Below, piece by piece: positions 57,557-62,863 of a stretch of DNA of 64,000 nt. Source of the stretch: a bacterium (GTDB taxonomy: Bacteria > CAYTYR01 > UBA6262). Made by a program: the position numbers and the translations under genes. A model generated the notes under the pieces. The model ran no database searches and was not told the origin of the DNA. It worked only from the letters and a program-made list of their open reading frames with translations. The stretch is from positions 5,303 through 69,302 of the forward strand of contig JAQTPL010000002.1 in NCBI GenBank assembly GCA_028712895.1. The letters run 5' to 3'. Numbering within the stretch: the stretch's first letter is position 1; every line of letters starts with the position of its first letter.

Positions 57557-58512
57557 CCAAGACTTTTGACGATTATCTTGGAGCAAGACCTTCCCTGTAT
57601 GGAAGAAACCTACTTAAGCGATTAGGTAACCAAAAATATTATGTTAATGAATATGACGTAATAGATTTTCTCGGTTATGAAATAAAACCGCTTAACCCTG
57701 AAGAACATAAAGGGATTTTGGAGTATAAAGGCATAGGCGATATTTTTGATGACCTTTGCGCAATAACATTTTACCGTGACAATATCATGTTTATTTCTGA
57801 ATCTATGCCCCCTACAAGGAAAAGATACACTATTTTCCACGAAATTGGCCACGAAATAAATGAACATCATCCGAAGGGATTAGTTTCAATAGGCAAAAAC
57901 AGTGATATAGATACTACTTCATATAAGCTTGCCGAGAGAGATGCTTTTTTAGCAGGTGCGGAAGTAATGTTTCCGCTAAAAAACTTTATTAATGATTCAA
58001 CCAGTCTTTCTTTGCAGTTTTCTTCTATTGAAAGTATTGCCCAAAGATATTGCGGTTCTTTTGAAGCTACGGCGATAAGGTATACTCTTACCAATCAAAA
58101 TATTATGGCTATTGTAGTAGTAAAAGAGAACGATTTAATTGACAACATAGAGAAGTTCACAAATAATTCATCTCCTAATGAATATTTATTGCCTTTACAA
58201 ATACCATTTTCTCAAAAACCAAATCTATCACCTACGCCTATTGCACCCCTGAGGGTTCAATATTGCATTCGTTCTTATCTTTTCCCAAAATTCATAAAAT
58301 CCGGCATTGAAATCGGTGAAGATAACCTTATATATAAATCATGGAAATCAAATATTTCTTTAACCGGTGAAATCCCCGCTTCGGTATTTGGTTCTTCTGC
58401 TAAGTTCAACTATACAGCGGAATGCAGACCGATTAACGGCAGAGTCTTTGTTTTATTATCACTTCCTGACAATCAGTTAAAACTATTTAATGGAGTCTCA
58501 TTATGCGGGTAG
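57553..58512 (+). CDS. ImmA/IrrE-family zinc metallopeptidase
   Basis: HEIGHEINEHH (HEXXH). Typical partner of an XRE repressor in ICE and prophage switches. Confidence 0.8.
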   Translation: MTKTFDDYLGARPSLYGRNLLKRLGNQKYYVNEYDVIDFLGYEIKPLNPEEHKGILEYKGIGDIFDDLCAITFYRDNIMFISESMPPTRKRYTIFHEIGHEINEHHPKGLVSIGKNSDIDTTSYKLAERDAFLAGAEVMFPLKNFINDSTSLSLQFSSIESIAQRYCGSFEATAIRYTLTNQNIMAIVVVKENDLIDNIEKFTNNSSPNEYLLPLQIPFSQKPNLSPTPIAPLRVQYCIRSYLFPKFIKSGIEIGEDNLIYKSWKSNISLTGEIPASVFGSSAKFNYTAECRPINGRVFVLLSLPDNQLKLFNGVSLCG

Positions 58513-60071
58513 CTTTGTATGCCAGAGTATCATCGGAAAAACAGGCTGAAAAGGACTTATCACTGCCAGCCCAGTTAAAAGCTCTTAGGGAATATGCTCT
58601 AAAACGGCAGTGGACAATCGTTGAAGAATTTATTGATGAGGCTGAAAGTGCCCGGACAGCCGATCGCCCGGAATTTCAACGAATGATTACATCAGCTAAG
58701 CATAAAGACGCCCCCTTCAATGTGATCCTTGTTTGGAAATTGAACCGCTTTGCCCGCAACCGTGAAGATTCTATAATTTACAAATCGCTACTCCGTAAGC
58801 GTGGTATTCAGGTTATTTCAACAAATGAAAACATTGATGAAGGCCCAACCGGTAAGCTTCTTGAGGGCATTATTGAGTCTATTGATGAATTTTACTCAGC
58901 AAATCTTTCACAGGACACTATCCGGGGATTAAAAGAAAATGCTATGCGGGGCTTCTGGAATGGTGGAATCGCCCCCTTTGGATATGACTTTGACTTTGTA
59001 AAGGTAGGAAACAACACAAAGCGGAAACTTAAAATCAATAAAATAAGAGCTTCAATAGTAAAAAAGATATTTAGCTTATCACTTGAGGGTGTAGGGATAA
59101 AAGAAATTGCAAAAGCATTGAACCAGGAAGGCTTTAAACGTAAAAGCGGTCAACCGTGGACAAACTCAAGTATCAGTTATATCTTAAATAACCCTATTTA
59201 TACTGGGTGTCTATTCTGGGATGAAGGCAAACACAATCCAAAAGCCGGCAAGCCCGTGATTAAGGTGCCAAATACTCACCCGGCCATTATTTCTGAAGGA
59301 GATTTCAATGAAGCCAGAAAACAGATAAGCTCCCGGTCAAGAAAAGTCATTCATCCAAGGGCATTAGGATCAAGATATCTTCTAAGCGGTATTTTACGGT
59401 GCAAAAAGTGCGGGAGTGCCATGACGGCATGTAGTGCTAAGTCTGGGAAGTTCCATTATTATTTCTGCCAGACATACCTCAAAAAAGGCAGGGAATACTG
59501 TGACCAAAAGCTAATCCCTGTTAATAAAATTGAGCCTTTAATCATTCAGACCATTAACAAGAGAATACTCACAGAAGAAAATATCAGGAAACTGCTTTTA
59601 ATGCTAAACGCTGAATTGCGGAAATTTGACGTTGAATACAAAACAAAACTTGATCTTATTGATGAGGGGTTAGAGGATAAGTTAAAACGCAGAGCTAAGA
59701 TATTCGAGGGTATAGAAACAGGAGCTATTAATCTACAAGATATCGCCCCAAGATTGAAAGAGCTTAATACTGAAATTGCCGAATTAGAACAGCATAAGCA
59801 GGATATACTCGAAAGACATCAGAATGGCGATGGCTTAAATATAAGTGATGAGCAGTTAAAACCATATACGGATGACCTCATTGAAACACTGTCAAAAGGA
59901 GCAATATCGGAAAGAAAGAGCTTTATACGCTCGTTCGTCAAAAGAATTACCGTCAATTACCCGCAATTAGAGCTTGAATACACTTTTCCCCTACCTATAA
60001 AAGGAAAAGACAGAACATCTACAAGAGAAGTTCTGTCTTTGAGTCAGTTTGGGGTGGCTAACGGGATTTGA
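58503..60071 (+). CDS. Large serine recombinase (integrase)
   Basis: Resolvase catalytic N-terminus MRVALYARVSSEKQ...SLPAQ, recombinase domain, and Cys zinc-ribbon (CKKCGSAMTAC...YFCQ). The C-terminal 7 codons overlap tRNA-His. Confidence 0.9.
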   Translation: MRVALYARVSSEKQAEKDLSLPAQLKALREYALKRQWTIVEEFIDEAESARTADRPEFQRMITSAKHKDAPFNVILVWKLNRFARNREDSIIYKSLLRKRGIQVISTNENIDEGPTGKLLEGIIESIDEFYSANLSQDTIRGLKENAMRGFWNGGIAPFGYDFDFVKVGNNTKRKLKINKIRASIVKKIFSLSLEGVGIKEIAKALNQEGFKRKSGQPWTNSSISYILNNPIYTGCLFWDEGKHNPKAGKPVIKVPNTHPAIISEGDFNEARKQISSRSRKVIHPRALGSRYLLSGILRCKKCGSAMTACSAKSGKFHYYFCQTYLKKGREYCDQKLIPVNKIEPLIIQTINKRILTEENIRKLLLMLNAELRKFDVEYKTKLDLIDEGLEDKLKRRAKIFEGIETGAINLQDIAPRLKELNTEIAELEQHKQDILERHQNGDGLNISDEQLKPYTDDLIETLSKGAISERKSFIRSFVKRITVNYPQLELEYTFPLPIKGKDRTSTREVLSLSQFGVANGI

Positions 60072-60127
60072 ACCCGCGACCTCTAGTGCCACAGACTAGC
60101 GCTCTAACCAGCTGAGCTACAGCCACC
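60050..60127 (-). tRNA. tRNA-His(GTG) with G-1 and encoded CCA
   Basis: G-GTGGCTGTAGCTCAGCTGGTTAGAGCG-CTAGT-CTGTGGC-ACTAG...GGGTTCAAATCCCGTTAGCCACC-C-CCA. The extra 5' G is characteristic of tRNA-His. Confidence 0.85.
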
Positions 60128-60327
60128 ATATTAAGGAAAGTTATAAGTTTTGAATTTTGAGTTTTGAATTTAGGTAAAATTACCTTAACTCATAACTTAC
60201 CTGTCCCCGCGTCTTTGATTTGTCCTTTAAGACAAATCAGCAGGGGAAAACTTAACACTCAAAACTTAAAACTGTTTTTATATTTAAGCGTCCCTGGCGT
60301 GATTCGAACACGCGACCCTCTGCTTAG

Positions 60328-60963
60328 CTTACCGCACTGGATTACTCCAGCCACCGAATTACTGGTGTTGCAAGTCTGGACTATGTCTTCACCGTTTCAG
60401 GTGTGTGGCATATAGTCTCTGAGGACTCTCGCTTGATTTCCAAGTAGTCATTTGCCCATTTAATAAATTTAGTTTGATTATTAGTGGGCTTATCAAAGCG
60501 AATAGCTTTCGGATAATTTGAACTATTTGGTATATAAAGCACTTTCTCTTTATCAGGGCAATAGATTGCATAGTAATCAAAATCATCCTGTTTATAATGC
60601 TTTATATGGGTACCATTTTTATCTGCCCAACTAGTTCTAAACTTAACTTCTATTGTACCGTTTCTCTTTAAAGTGGCATATTTTACTTGTATTTTATAAG
60701 TACTACCATCATCCAAAACAACAACTATATCATACGGTTGGTGCTCAGACAGTGGTAAACAAGGAACATACCCTTTTAAAGTCAAATCGGCTATAACCTT
60801 GGCTACTCCAATATCCGCTTTGACTTTCGTGTGGTGCAATGCTCACTCCTTTCTTTTATGACGACCTGGACCCAGCGGTTGCCTGCAAATTGTCCTGATA
60901 TTTCATCAGGAGTTCCTTGCATATAGCCACATCCACTCTACCTGTTCTTTTCCAAGTAGAGGC
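60328..60963 (-). ncRNA. Group I self-splicing intron (636 nt) in the tRNA-Arg(UCU) anticodon loop, inserted between positions 34 and 35
   Basis: The 3' region reads ...UCAGAGACUAUAUGCCACACACCUGAAACGGUGAAGACAUAGUCCAG..., which contains R-like (CAGAGACUA), P8 hairpin (CACC-UGAAAC-GGUG) and S-like (AAGACAUAGUCC) elements. The last intron nucleotide is G and the last exon-1 nucleotide is U. P2-like hairpin CUCUAC...GUAGAG near the 5' end. Confidence 0.7.
60381..60839 (-). CDS. Intron-encoded ORF (152 aa), putative homing endonuclease (possibly PD-(D/E)xK-like)
   Basis: TTG start 6 nt after a perfect AAGGAG Shine-Dalgarno inside the intron. The stop codon UAG is the UAG of the P7 3' strand. The basic protein contains PYDIVVVLDDGSTYKIQVKY. 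Confidence 0.55.
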   Translation of the reverse strand: MHHTKVKADIGVAKVIADLTLKGYVPCLPLSEHQPYDIVVVLDDGSTYKIQVKYATLKRNGTIEVKFRTSWADKNGTHIKHYKQDDFDYYAIYCPDKEKVLYIPNSSNYPKAIRFDKPTNNQTKFIKWANDYLEIKRESSETICHTPETVKT

Positions 60964-61032
60964 TCCTATTTTGAAGGCAGATGCTCTATCCAGCTGAGCT
61001 ACAGGGACAAATATAATATTTTCAATTATATA

Positions 61033-61395
61033 TTACAGTAATTCTTTAATTTTAGCAAGGAGGGCTTCCGGCTCGAAAGGCTTAGTAATATAAGCATCTG
61101 CCCCCAAGTCCTGGCCAAGCTTCTTATCTTCTTCTACACCTTTGGCGGTCAAAACGATTATAGGAATTGCCTGATAGCGACCGTCAAATTTAAGCATTCT
61201 TAAGATCTGATAACCATTCATGGTGGGCAACATGATGTCCAGGATAATAAGATCGGGAGCTTCTTCCCGCGCCATGTTTAAGCCTTTTTGCCCATCCGTA
61301 GCGAAAATAACCGCATAGCCGTTTGCTTCCAGCCGGATCTTGAGCAAATTGACTATTTGCTGTTCATCTTCGATTATCAATATCTTCTTAGCCAT
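61033..61395 (-). CDS. Single-domain response regulator (CheY-like), paralog of 6186-6551
   Basis: MAKKILIIEDEQQIVNLLKIRLEANGY...LDIMLPTMNGY...TKPFEPEALLAKIKELL. Confidence 0.9.
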   Translation of the reverse strand: MAKKILIIEDEQQIVNLLKIRLEANGYAVIFATDGQKGLNMAREEAPDLIILDIMLPTMNGYQILRMLKFDGRYQAIPIIVLTAKGVEEDKKLGQDLGADAYITKPFEPEALLAKIKELL

Positions 61396-61455
61396 ACTAC
61401 CTCTATTTATAGCAGCTTCGCTGGAATGGATCTTTTACATGAGAGCGATAAAAAA

Positions 61456-61528
61456 TGCCTCGGGACGGAATCGAACCGCCGACGCCAGCCTTTTCAGGGC
61501 TGCGCTCTACCGACTGAGCTACCGAGGC
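61456..61528 (-). tRNA. tRNA-Phe(GAA)
   Basis: Acceptor GCCTCGG/CCGAGGC, anticodon loop CTGAAAA, T-loop TTCGATT. No CCA encoded. Confidence 0.8.
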
Positions 61529-61552
61529 ATGTAAATATACTGCAATATAGGA

Positions 61553-61882
61553 TTAATCTTTCTTGGCTTTCTTTTTCCTTACATCTTTTATTAAGTTTAA
61601 GCCTTTAATAATAGTGGTCACAATTCCTATTATCTTGACCATGGAAAAAGCAGCCGCCTTACCGGTTACTTGTTTTAGGTGATCAGAAGTTTCCTTGATA
61701 TTCTCCACAGCAACATCAATTTTCATAACTTCCGTGTTTATCTGCTGAGCCAGGGAATCAACACTTTGCAATGTGTTTTTCAACTGCTTAAGAACCTGCA
61801 CTAAATATACTAACAGGACCACTACGGCAACTGACAACACCGCAAACAAAACACTCTGGAAAAAGTAAATATTCATTCTCAA
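61553..61882 (-). CDS. Small membrane-anchored coiled-coil protein (DUF948-like)
   Basis: N-terminal TM helix then an amphipathic helical region. Lys-rich tail. Confidence 0.5.
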   Translation of the reverse strand: MRMNIYFFQSVLFAVLSVAVVVLLVYLVQVLKQLKNTLQSVDSLAQQINTEVMKIDVAVENIKETSDHLKQVTGKAAAFSMVKIIGIVTTIIKGLNLIKDVRKKKAKKD

Positions 61883-61914
61883 GCCCTCCTAGCGGTTCGA
61901 CAAGCTCACCATTT

Positions 61915-62124
61915 TCAACAGTGTGAGCAATGGCCGCTGGAACAGGAAGAACATTTACCGCTGCCGTTGCTGGCAGATCCTGTGCCGGCTCCCAGGCTCA
62001 CCCGGGAAATAAGTTTGGATAGTTCCTGAGACTTACATGTAGGGCATTCCGGTATATCGCTACTGTAAACTAATAGCTCAAATTGGTTTTTGCATTTTTT
62101 GCAGATATATTCGAAGATAGGCAC
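61915..62124 (-). CDS. FmdB-family zinc-ribbon protein
   Basis: MPIFEYICKKCKNQFE...CPTCKS matches the FmdB zinc-ribbon signature. Cys/Ser-rich C-terminal tail. Confidence 0.7.
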   Translation of the reverse strand: MPIFEYICKKCKNQFELLVYSSDIPECPTCKSQELSKLISRVSLGAGTGSASNGSGKCSSCSSGHCSHC

Positions 62125-62233
62125 TGTGTCGTTTCACTCCACCGTTCGTAGTTCGTGGTTCATGGTTAGTAGTAAAAGCTCTTTTTAATTTTTACGACGA
62201 ACCACTAATGATTAACCACCATCGGTATTAAAA

Positions 62234-62309
62234 CGGGGACGACGGGATTCGAACCCGCGATCTCTGCCTTGACAGGGCAGCGTGTTAAACCAGGCTACAC
62301 CACATCCCC
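62234..62309 (-). tRNA. tRNA-Asp(GTC)
   Basis: Acceptor GGGGATG/CGTCCCC (one G-U pair), anticodon loop CTGTCAA, T-loop TTCGAAT. Confidence 0.8.
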
Positions 62310-62406
62310 ATAGATACAGCTAAATGTAATTAGCTAGATGCTTAAAGTAACTACACATAAATGATTTTTAACTTTTAGCTTCCAGCATTCAGCTTTCAGC
62401 TAAAAA

Positions 62407-62482
62407 TGGTGGGCAGTATAGGATTTGAACCTATGACCTCCGCCTTGTAAAGGCGGCGCTCTCCCAGCTAAGCTAACTGCCC
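62407..62482 (-). tRNA. tRNA-Val(TAC), CCA encoded
   Basis: Acceptor GGGCAGT/ACTGCCC, anticodon loop TTTACAA, T-loop TTCAAAT. Confidence 0.8.
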
Positions 62483-62607
62483 GTCGCTTGAGCAAATACC
62501 GTTCGTCGTTAATCGTTCGTTGTTCGTCGTAAAAGCTTTTGTATTTACTACCAACTATCAACTCCGAGACCGATTTTATCGGTCGGACGATTAACGGCTT
62601 CTAAAAA

Positions 62608-62679
62608 TGCGGCCCCAAGGGGAATCGAACCCCTATCGCGTCCTTGAAAGGGACGTGTCCTAACCGTTAGACGATGGGG
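62608..62679 (-). tRNA. tRNA-Glu(TTC)
   Basis: Acceptor GGCCCCA/TGGGGCC, anticodon loop CTTTCAA, T-loop TTCGATT. Confidence 0.8.
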
Positions 62680-62790
62680 CCAGTTTTTAAAAAGCAACTT
62701 CAGTTAAAAGTTGGGAGTTTGTAGTTAGTAGTAAAAACTACAAACTATTGGCCCCCTAACCACTAACTCTTTTCTCTGAAAAGAGAAAAG

Positions 62791-62863
62791 TGAGCCGGGT
62801 GAGATTCGGACTCACGACACCTGCCTTAAAAGGGCAGTGCTCTACCAGCTGAGCTACCGGCCC
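62791..62863 (-). tRNA. tRNA-Lys(TTT)
   Basis: Acceptor GGGCCGG/CCGGCTC (one G-U pair), anticodon loop CTTTTAA, T-loop TCCGAAT. Confidence 0.8.

Follow-up and report, generated by a model that had tools for sequence, protein, structure and literature searches.

A tRNA-Arg(UCU) gene very probably split by a group I intron that carries an I-Ssp6803I-family homing endonuclease gene

The split tRNA-Arg(UCU) gene and its intron

We analyzed a 64,000-nucleotide stretch of bacterial DNA (contig JAQTPL010000002.1 of GenBank assembly GCA_028712895.1, positions 5,303 to 69,302), hereafter the window, and numbered all positions from its first nucleotide. At 61008..60289 on the minus strand, the window very probably holds a tRNA-Arg(UCU) gene split by a 646-nt group I intron that in turn carries a homing endonuclease gene of the I-Ssp6803I family. 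All parts of this locus described below lie on the minus strand. Exon 1 (60974..61008, 35 nt) covers tRNA positions 1-34 and ends ...CUGCCUU34, with C32, U33, and U34 as its last nucleotides. Exon 2 (60289..60327, 39 nt) covers positions 35-73, starts with CUAAGCAGA (C35, U36, A37), and does not encode the CCA. When the two exons were joined in silico, ARAGORN folded them into a clean tRNA-Arg(tct) cloverleaf with four intact stems. A preliminary description of this DNA, made from the sequence alone, had reported an insertion into a tRNA-Arg(UCU) gene between positions 34 and 35 of its anticodon, with a U at the 3' end of exon 1 and a G as the last nucleotide of the intron. These points were borne out; as read from the sequence, only the cut U34|C35 restores the anticodon loop, giving CU-UCU-AA and an intron-terminal G (60328). 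The intervening length of 636 nt given there was wrong and is corrected to 646 nt (60973..60328), and the feature ends at 61008 rather than at 60998, a boundary that left out 10 nt at the 5' end of the tRNA. The likeness drawn to the geometry of tRNA-Leu(UAA) introns also holds, as the supplement of a survey of complete bacterial genomes (PMC13011429, mSystems 2026) gives 34/35 for both.

A genome scan with the open reading frame (ORF) of the intron found 52 related loci, 41 of which were fully parsable. In every locus left whole by contig ends and N runs, and so in 41 of the 41, the gene lay inside a tRNA-Arg(UCU) split at 34/35. Together with the covariation described below, this recurrence shows that the arrangement did not come about by chance. 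The 5' half of the tRNA was the same in 40+ related loci, exon 2 of the window was identical or near-identical in related loci, and both exons were conserved across loci with compensatory changes in the stems. Within the 64-kb window, ARAGORN found no second tRNA-Arg(UCU). As a separate observation, a U29.C41 mismatch in the anticodon stem (CCUGC / GCCGG) marked the tRNA-Arg(UCU) of one clade (loci L002, L009-L011, L013-L015, L017, L018, L020, and L023, in our numbering) and was kept across many metagenome-assembled genomes (MAGs).

The intron (60328..60973) begins with CAAAAUAGGAGCC and ends ...GCGGUAAG, with the omega-G at 60328. Close to its 5' end lies an internal guide sequence, 5'-UAG|GAG-3' (60963..60968), of which GAG pairs with exon C32U33U34 as P1 and UAG could pair with C35U36A37 as a possible P10. 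It is followed by the P2 hairpin (CUCUACUUG / CAGGUAGAG, 60936..60961), the P3 5' strand UGUGGC (60926..60931), P4 (UGCAAG/UUUGCA) around P5 (UCCUGAU/AUCAGGA) at 60884..60921, and the P6 5' strand (GG of GGCAAC) with the P6a 5' strand CGCUGGGU (60870..60883). On the far side of the ORF interior, the P6a 3' strand AUCAAGCG (codons ~133-136), a 5-nt spacer, and the P6 3' strand CC occupy 60423..60437. Next come J6/7 and the P7 5' strand, an R element CAGAGACUA with a bulged A (60413..60421), and the P3 3' strand GCCACA (60404..60409), which pairs with the P3 5' strand in a pseudoknot with P7. The P8 hairpin CACCUGAAACGGUG (CACC UGAAAC GGUG, 60390..60403) and J8/7 with the P7 3' strand, an S element AAGACAUAGUCC (60378..60389), complete the core. 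The P9 domain (60331..60375) consists of a closing helix ACUUGC/GCGGU, a variable hairpin, and a GNRA hairpin CUGGA-GUAA-UCCAG. The R and S elements were invariant in 41/41 loci, and the R element agreed with the RF00028 consensus AGACUA. The R-like and S-like sequences that the preliminary description had seen around a P8 hairpin are thus real features of the intron, at 60421-60413 and 60389-60378.

In permissive mode, the Rfam model RF00028 matched the intron in two pieces that flank the ORF, one over P4-P5 (model positions 60-96; 60884-60921; 20.3 bits) and one over the P7/P3'/P8/P7' core (60362-60594; 22.2 bits). Complete relatives that lack an ORF also stayed below the gathering score of this model, L045 with 25.9 bits and L041 with no match, and the model is therefore insensitive to this class of intron. 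The absence of an Intron_gpI hit, which the preliminary description had named as a refutation, is not valid as such for this class.

The secondary structure was next evaluated by covariation. The ORF interior and the variable loops of the 41 parsable loci were removed at conserved motif anchors, which gave cores of equal length (191 nt) that aligned gap-free in MAFFT; a group I structure derived by hand was then counted on this alignment, with slid partners (without per-sequence sliding) and 500 shuffles as controls. At register 0, 92.5% of the cells were paired, compared with 31-45% when slid. Compensatory changes were found in 34 of 64 pairs, compared with 9-16, and the covariation score was 0.308, compared with 0.05-0.09. 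None of the 500 shuffles matched the observed percentage paired, the number of compensatory pairs, or the covariation score, and 6 of 500 matched the observed count of further pair types. P1 was essentially invariant (U34.G9 in 41/41, U33-A10 in 40/41, C32-G11 in 41/41), so that a U.G wobble formed with an internal guide sequence stands at the 5' splice site in every locus, and the junction '...G|CUAAG', which carries the omega-G, was likewise present in 41/41. Compensatory pairs made up 8 of 9 in P2 (97.8% paired), 4 of 6 in the P3 pseudoknot (98.8% paired), 4 of 6 in P5, 2 of 5 in P8 (AU to GC and CG to UA), and 8 of 10 in P9 with its GNRA hairpin (99% paired). P4 was nearly invariant, with five of its six pairs fixed and the sixth G-U/G-C. 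P2, P3, P5, P6a, P8, and P9 thus all covaried, and a P3-P8 core with a P3/P7 pseudoknot, as expected of a group I intron, has been kept by compensatory changes. From the architecture (P2 present, a simple P5, no P5abc), the intron appears to be an IC3-like member of the compact type found in bacterial tRNA genes, and it is predicted to be self-splicing.

Two other treatments of the structure were rejected. MAFFT followed by RNAalifold on the ORF-deleted introns could not represent the P3/P7 pseudoknot and gave a spurious extension of P3, and it was replaced by the motif-anchored segments. An alternative register of P1, in which U34 pairs with the base 5' of GGAG, was suggested by one atypical locus, L022, and rejected generally, as it loses the U.G wobble in most sequences. 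L022 itself (JACRDL010000108.1, ~1349-2014) has an exon 1 with ...CCAU at its 3' end, so that tRNA position 33, normally invariant, is an A, and an intron guide GAUGAGC in place of AGGAGC (G-to-U); it may represent a shifted P1 register, an error, or a decaying allele. Three further loci (L025, L038, and L005) had extra insertions of 40-100 nt that separate the guide from the 5' splice site, with stretches that looked self-complementary by eye, and introns of 683-743 nt.

The endonuclease gene in the P6a loop

The ORF (60381..60839; 152 amino acids plus stop) starts with TTG at 60839, 6 nt downstream of a Shine-Dalgarno sequence AAGGAG (60846..60851), and ends with UAG at 60383-60381, the three nucleotides with which the P7 3' strand begins. 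The Shine-Dalgarno sequence, the start, the length, and the overlap of the stop with P7 were all as the preliminary description had given them. The encoded protein matched the Pfam family PF11645 (PDDEXK_5) with 102 bits (cut-off 26.1; E 3.5e-29) over profile positions 1-136 of 138. Its sole credible sequence match in the Protein Data Bank (PDB) was 2OST (E 7.7e-4 with the single sequence and 3e-6 with a 31-sequence profile), the homing endonuclease I-Ssp6803I. An AlphaFold model of the protein had a predicted local distance difference test (pLDDT) of ~75-83 in its core. When this model was searched with Foldseek, chains A-D of 2OST took ranks 1-4 (best chain E 1.2e-8, TM 0.66/0.68) and the next match had an E of at least 0.01, so that the nearest fold is that of I-Ssp6803I. 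Residues D37, Q51, and K53 were invariant and E32 was conserved in at least 90% of 31 homologs, and they aligned with YD...QVK of 2OST; these are presumably the catalytic PD-(D/E)XK positions. At NCBI, the homologs are named 'group I intron-associated PD-(D/E)XK endonuclease'. The resemblance to PD-(D/E)xK nucleases such as I-Ssp6803I, which the preliminary description had drawn from a short motif, is therefore supported by PF11645, the PDB profile search, and Foldseek alike.

We next compared substitutions among the relatives. In the ORF body (residues 2-132), the median nonsynonymous divergence (pN) was 0.21 and the median synonymous divergence (pS) was 0.81, which is saturated, and the ratio of the corresponding rates (dN/dS) was ~0.1 in pairs without synonymous saturation. 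These values show strong purifying selection on the protein. The window ORF is predicted to be translated into an active endonuclease. I-Ssp6803I is a tetramer with a 23-bp pseudo-palindromic target (PMC3384342), and the coding sequence of an anticodon loop is pseudo-palindromic because of the anticodon stem; the target expected here would be the DNA of the Arg anticodon stem-loop, TCTGCCTTCTAAGCAGA.

The ORF is bracketed by the long-range helix P6a, with its 5' strand at 60877-60870, right after GGCAAC, and its 3' strand at 60437-60430, formed by the ORF codons just ahead of GAGUCC. The basal pairs of this helix took the forms CGCU/AGCG, CGUU/AACG, CAUU/AAUG, CUAC/GUAG, CUAU/AUAG, and CUUU/AAAG across loci. 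Pair 1 was CG in 40 of 41 loci; pair 2 was GC in 27, AU in 7, and UA in 6; and pair 3 was UA in 22, CG in 8, and AU in 3. The base of P6a thus covaried with the last ORF codons. Because P6a both brackets the ORF and covaries, the endonuclease gene is looped out of P6a, a peripheral site. The ORF of the phage T4 td intron is located in P6a in the same way. In L009-type loci, the P6a 5' strand CGUUAAAUUAC can pair either with a local GUAAUUAAAUG upstream of the Shine-Dalgarno sequence or with a distal GUAAUAAAACG at the 3' end of the ORF, and the two partners resemble a direct repeat on either side of the ORF, which may reflect an alternative structure or be left over from the insertion of the ORF.

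Past P6a, the ORF reads in frame through J6/7, P7, P3', P8, and J8/7 to the UAG of P7', so that its last ~16 codons are also the ribozyme core. In tail residues 137-152, pN (0.083) and pS (0.087) were equal and low, which indicates that the constraint there acts on the RNA and not on the protein. The position of the stop was polymorphic among the 41 loci. In 26 intact loci the ORF ended at the P7' UAG, as in the window, and so did that of the internally deleted L049. In 10 of 41 it stopped 11-15 nt before AGAGACUA, with TAA, TAG, or TGA and at least four different stop solutions; three more stopped inside the core in a shifted frame, and one (L031) had a premature stop at codon 50. Since 10 of 41 relatives end before the core, the tail that overlaps the core appears from these sequences to be evolutionarily dispensable and not a functional part of the protein. 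In the core creep model, the loss of a stop codon extends an ORF to the next in-frame stop within the core (PMC3073962), and the tail of the window ORF fits this model.

It is plausible, as the preliminary description had proposed, that translation and ribozyme folding compete. The start codon was TTG in 24 of the 41 loci, ATG in 9, GTG in 4, and apparently CTG in 4, and a strong (A)AGGAGG-type Shine-Dalgarno sequence was conserved upstream of it in the subset of loci inspected. A weak start codon may limit expression of the endonuclease, and since the start is predominantly the weak TTG, any such conflict would be limited.

Related loci and known introns

The ORF had 325 homologs in a protein search; among the best 120, 101 were 151-153 amino acids long, and the named ones were from Omnitrophota. 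The loci of the genome scan lay mostly in MAGs labelled Omnitrophota, with others labelled Elusimicrobiota/Endomicrobiales, 'Planctomycet*', Ignavibacteria, and Pseudomonadota. The window was 99.9% identical over 6,459 nt to MAG contig JAQUKR010000090.1 of GCA_028719005.1, and a complete Omnitrophota chromosome (CP070655.1, L001) had the same neighborhood of response regulator, split tRNA-Arg, and tRNA-His. The host is therefore likely of Omnitrophota type, judged by these matches. A cyanobacterial origin, implied by earlier analogies, was not supported, as the homologs are mainly from Omnitrophota MAGs. Carriage by phage was also rejected, as no relatives were found in viral contigs.

Empty sites were sought by scanning metagenomes for the intron-less junction, which yielded at least 120 loci. 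In the window, the split gene belongs to a minus-strand cluster (60050-62863) of tRNA-Lys(ttt), Glu, Val, Asp, and Phe, a response regulator gene, the split tRNA-Arg(tct), and tRNA-His. Among the matches listed, metagenome contig Ga0182021_10037887 (L134) had tRNA-Lys(ttt), Glu, Val, Asp, and Phe, a response regulator 72.5% identical in amino acids to that of the window, and an intact tRNA-Arg(UCU) that differs from the spliced tRNA of the window at one D-loop position only. By gene order and sequence, this intact gene appears to be the positional ortholog and empty-site counterpart of the window locus. Also among the matches listed, the intron-less alleles L060 and L130 had exons identical to those of the intron-bearing L021, L026, and L042.

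Decaying copies and copies without an internal ORF were found as well. In addition to L031 with its premature stop, L049 had a 482-nt intron in which the ORF was internally deleted to 99 amino acids and the ribozyme parts were intact. L041 (CAYNTZ010000002.1, 1203-2075) had a different, ORF-less group I intron of 199 nt at 34/35 of tRNA-Arg(UCU), and a free-standing PF11645 homolog (TTG ~1501 to 1911) 26 nt downstream of the tRNA and before tRNA-His; this arrangement is similar to the one put forward for 'collaborative homing' and for how mobile introns arose. In L045 (CAYYFU010000074.1, 1501-2272), a PF11645 homolog (1501-1902) lay just upstream of a tRNA-Arg(UCU) with a 249-nt ORF-less intron. 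L050 (Scytonema sp. PCC 10023, 1348-2154) had an intact, intron-less tRNA-Arg(tct) at 1348-1422, followed 76 nt on by a free-standing homolog of 218 amino acids, with a PDDEXK_5-like N-terminal part (50% identity over residues 1-102) and a C-terminal extension of ~90 amino acids. Empty, decayed, and ORF-less copies form the pattern predicted by the homing cycle, a pattern that fits a mobile element without proving that it still moves today.

We then compared the window element with published introns. An interruption of tRNA-Arg-TCT by a putative group I intron has been reported in Thiomargarita (PMC4853749, 2016) and, as cited there from MacGregor 2013, in Beggiatoa BOGUAY. In Bacillota and Bacteroidota, the introns that the survey of complete bacterial genomes records at Arg(TCT) 34/35 are mostly IC3, with one of four such Bacillota entries labelled IB3 in its supplement; the survey also reports PD-(D/E)XK (PF11645) endonuclease genes in introns of tRNA-Arg(UCU) from Bacteroidota and Campylobacterota and of tRNA-fMet from Cyanobacteriota (PMC13011429). 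The possibility raised in the preliminary description, that this is a new intron and endonuclease pair, consequently fails. The window element shares with these published endonuclease-bearing introns the tRNA, the 34/35 site, and a PF11645 ORF inside the intron.

The two closest cases, in the Bacteroidota genome GCF_009740285.1 and the Campylobacterota genome GCF_016593255.1, have introns of 639 nt, compared with 646 nt in the window, and their ORFs start at intron nucleotides 131 and 142, compared with 135. The internal guide sequence, P2, and J2/3 (GGAGCC...AGUGGAU) are similar between the window and the endonuclease-bearing introns of that survey, and the window protein is ~43% identical to their proteins over the ~75 residues compared. 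By contrast, P4 is of the AUGCAAGG type in the window and of the AUCGGUG type in the published introns, the P3-P6 region differs, and the relatives of the window element lie in Omnitrophota MAGs and in MAGs labelled Elusimicrobiota and Planctomycetes. The sole Omnitrophota entry found in the part of the PMC13011429 table that was compared is an fMet intron, and our literature search found no paper that describes this Arg(UCU) intron and endonuclease element in Omnitrophota. On these comparisons, the window element appears to be a diverged sub-lineage, in a new host lineage, of an already published intron and endonuclease pair.

The ORF-less Arg(TCT) introns of Bacillota and Bacteroidota, Beggiatoa BOGUAY, and Thiomargarita interrupt the same host gene. 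Those in PMC13011429 share the 34/35 site and the R/S core (AGAGACUA ... AUAGUCC) with the window; ORF-less introns of this kind are 213-338 nt long, lack an endonuclease gene, and have a simple P6 hairpin where the window intron holds its ORF. The tRNA-fMet intron of Synechocystis PCC 6803 is likewise an anticodon-loop group I intron with a PF11645 enzyme of ~150 amino acids; it is inserted at 33/34 of fMet (PMC13011429) rather than at 34/35 of Arg-UCU, and I-Ssp6803I is ~25% identical to the window protein in the structural alignment. In the phage T4 td intron with I-TevI, too, the ORF loops out of a peripheral helix, has translation signals of its own, and overlaps the ribozyme at its 3' end as in the core creep model (PMC3073962). 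This intron differs from the window element in its ribozyme subgroup, its GIY-YIG enzyme, and its host gene, which is a protein-coding gene in a phage.

Proposed mechanism and alternative explanations

We propose that the pre-tRNA is transcribed and that its intron would fold into P1-P10, with P1 formed by exon C32U33U34 and intron GAG, a U.G wobble at the splice site, and a core built from the P3/P7 pseudoknot and the G-binding helix P7. Exogenous guanosine would attack the 5' splice site, and the 3'-OH of U34 in exon 1 would then attack after the omega-G (60328), yielding mature tRNA-Arg(UCU). From its own Shine-Dalgarno sequence and weak TTG, the gene in the P6a loop would encode the 152-amino-acid PF11645 homing endonuclease. 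By analogy with I-Ssp6803I, this enzyme would cut intron-less tRNA-Arg(UCU) genes near the sequence coding for the anticodon loop, and repair from an intron-bearing allele would copy the intron in.

Several results weigh against this interpretation. At default thresholds, ARAGORN and Rfam called neither the tRNA nor the intron at the window locus, although both recognized the eight neighboring tRNAs at default settings. In intron mode, ARAGORN found the outer tRNA, misplaced the splice sites, and proposed a tRNA-SeC(tca), a mis-splice that we rejected for its poor anticodon stem and because the cut U34|C35 yields a perfect tRNA-Arg(UCU). No RF00028 match reached the gathering score of 50 in the window; since the complete ORF-less relatives fail too, the weak score was not counted against a group I intron. 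The anchors of the core alignment were picked in knowledge of the structure, which biases the counts in its favor. P4, P6, and P7 were invariant or nearly so and hence uninformative, and P10 was weak (79% paired). For the protein, confidence in the AlphaFold model was moderate (mean pLDDT 64, with residues 118-152 below 35), and no NCBIfam model matched the ORF.

Two other explanations were considered. The failure of the tools at default thresholds is what a dead gene might also show, that is, two tRNA fragments around a selfish element that does not splice, with a functional tRNA-Arg(UCU) encoded elsewhere. We regard this as extremely improbable, because both exons have perfect tRNA features and their stems change in a compensatory way from locus to locus, covariation maintains every helix of the ribozyme, the locus is the apparent positional ortholog of the intact tRNA-Arg(UCU) of L134, and the window holds no other copy of this tRNA. 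Moreover, related Arg(TCT) introns at 34/35 are catalogued as group I IC3, and self-splicing in vitro was confirmed for other tRNA introns detected, in the same survey (PMC13011429).

Alternatively, the intron could be real and now inherited vertically, with the ORF kept for another role, as a maturase or in some other DNA or RNA function useful to the host. Decay would be expected of a homing gene that is purely selfish and sits in a fixed intron, and three results speak for such a role: purifying selection is strong across lineages with saturated synonymous sites, 39 of the 41 parsed copies have an ORF of intact length, and identity between endonucleases is only weakly correlated with identity between exons (Spearman 0.36). 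However, the PD...QxK positions of a nuclease are invariant, and to our knowledge no maturase activity is known for the PF11645 family, which weighs against this explanation. The empty site in the syntenic L134, the intron-less L060 and L130 with exons equal to those of L021, L026, and L042, and the decayed and ORF-less copies (L031, L049, and L041) are what the homing cycle predicts, and the MAGs that carry the element bear the labels of several phyla (see also PMC13011429). We therefore consider a purely non-homing role to be quite improbable and prefer a self-splicing intron with a homing endonuclease.

These results extend a known intron and endonuclease pair to uncultured bacteria of Omnitrophota type, in which it appears to be widespread, given the 325 homologous proteins; the current understanding of such elements is unchanged by the window element. 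Because neither ARAGORN nor Rfam detects the tRNA or the intron at default settings, genomes of this kind appear to lack tRNA-Arg(UCU). The relatives provide diverse enzymes of the I-Ssp6803I family, presumably directed at a different tRNA gene, that could serve the study and engineering of PD-(D/E)XK specificity, and their polymorphic ORF stops give a clean natural illustration of core creep. A broader proposal, possible but in our view rather unlikely, is that the Omnitrophota-type lineage preserves every proposed stage in the birth and decay of a mobile intron, with the endonuclease still under strong purifying selection. The stages would comprise a free-standing PF11645 gene beside a tRNA-Arg(UCU) that has an unrelated ORF-less intron (L041, L045) or none (L050), a P6a-loop gene that stops before the core, core-creep forms that run into P7', and copies that are frame-shifted, truncated, or deleted. 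If this were true, homing would be continuous and cross-phylum, or the protein would have gained a role useful to the host, and the family would offer a natural setting in which to test the models of collaborative homing and core creep.

Beside the split gene, on the plus strand at 58503-60126, lies a gene for a large serine recombinase of 522 amino acids (Resolvase, Recombinase, and Zn_ribbon_recom domains), which shares 22 nt with the 3' end of the minus-strand tRNA-His gene (60050-60126). No att-type repeat of this tRNA end was detected elsewhere in the window. The recombinase region is probably an integrated mobile element beside tRNA-His. In a near-identical contig (L174), the serine recombinase gene is followed by Peptidase_M78 and HTH genes.

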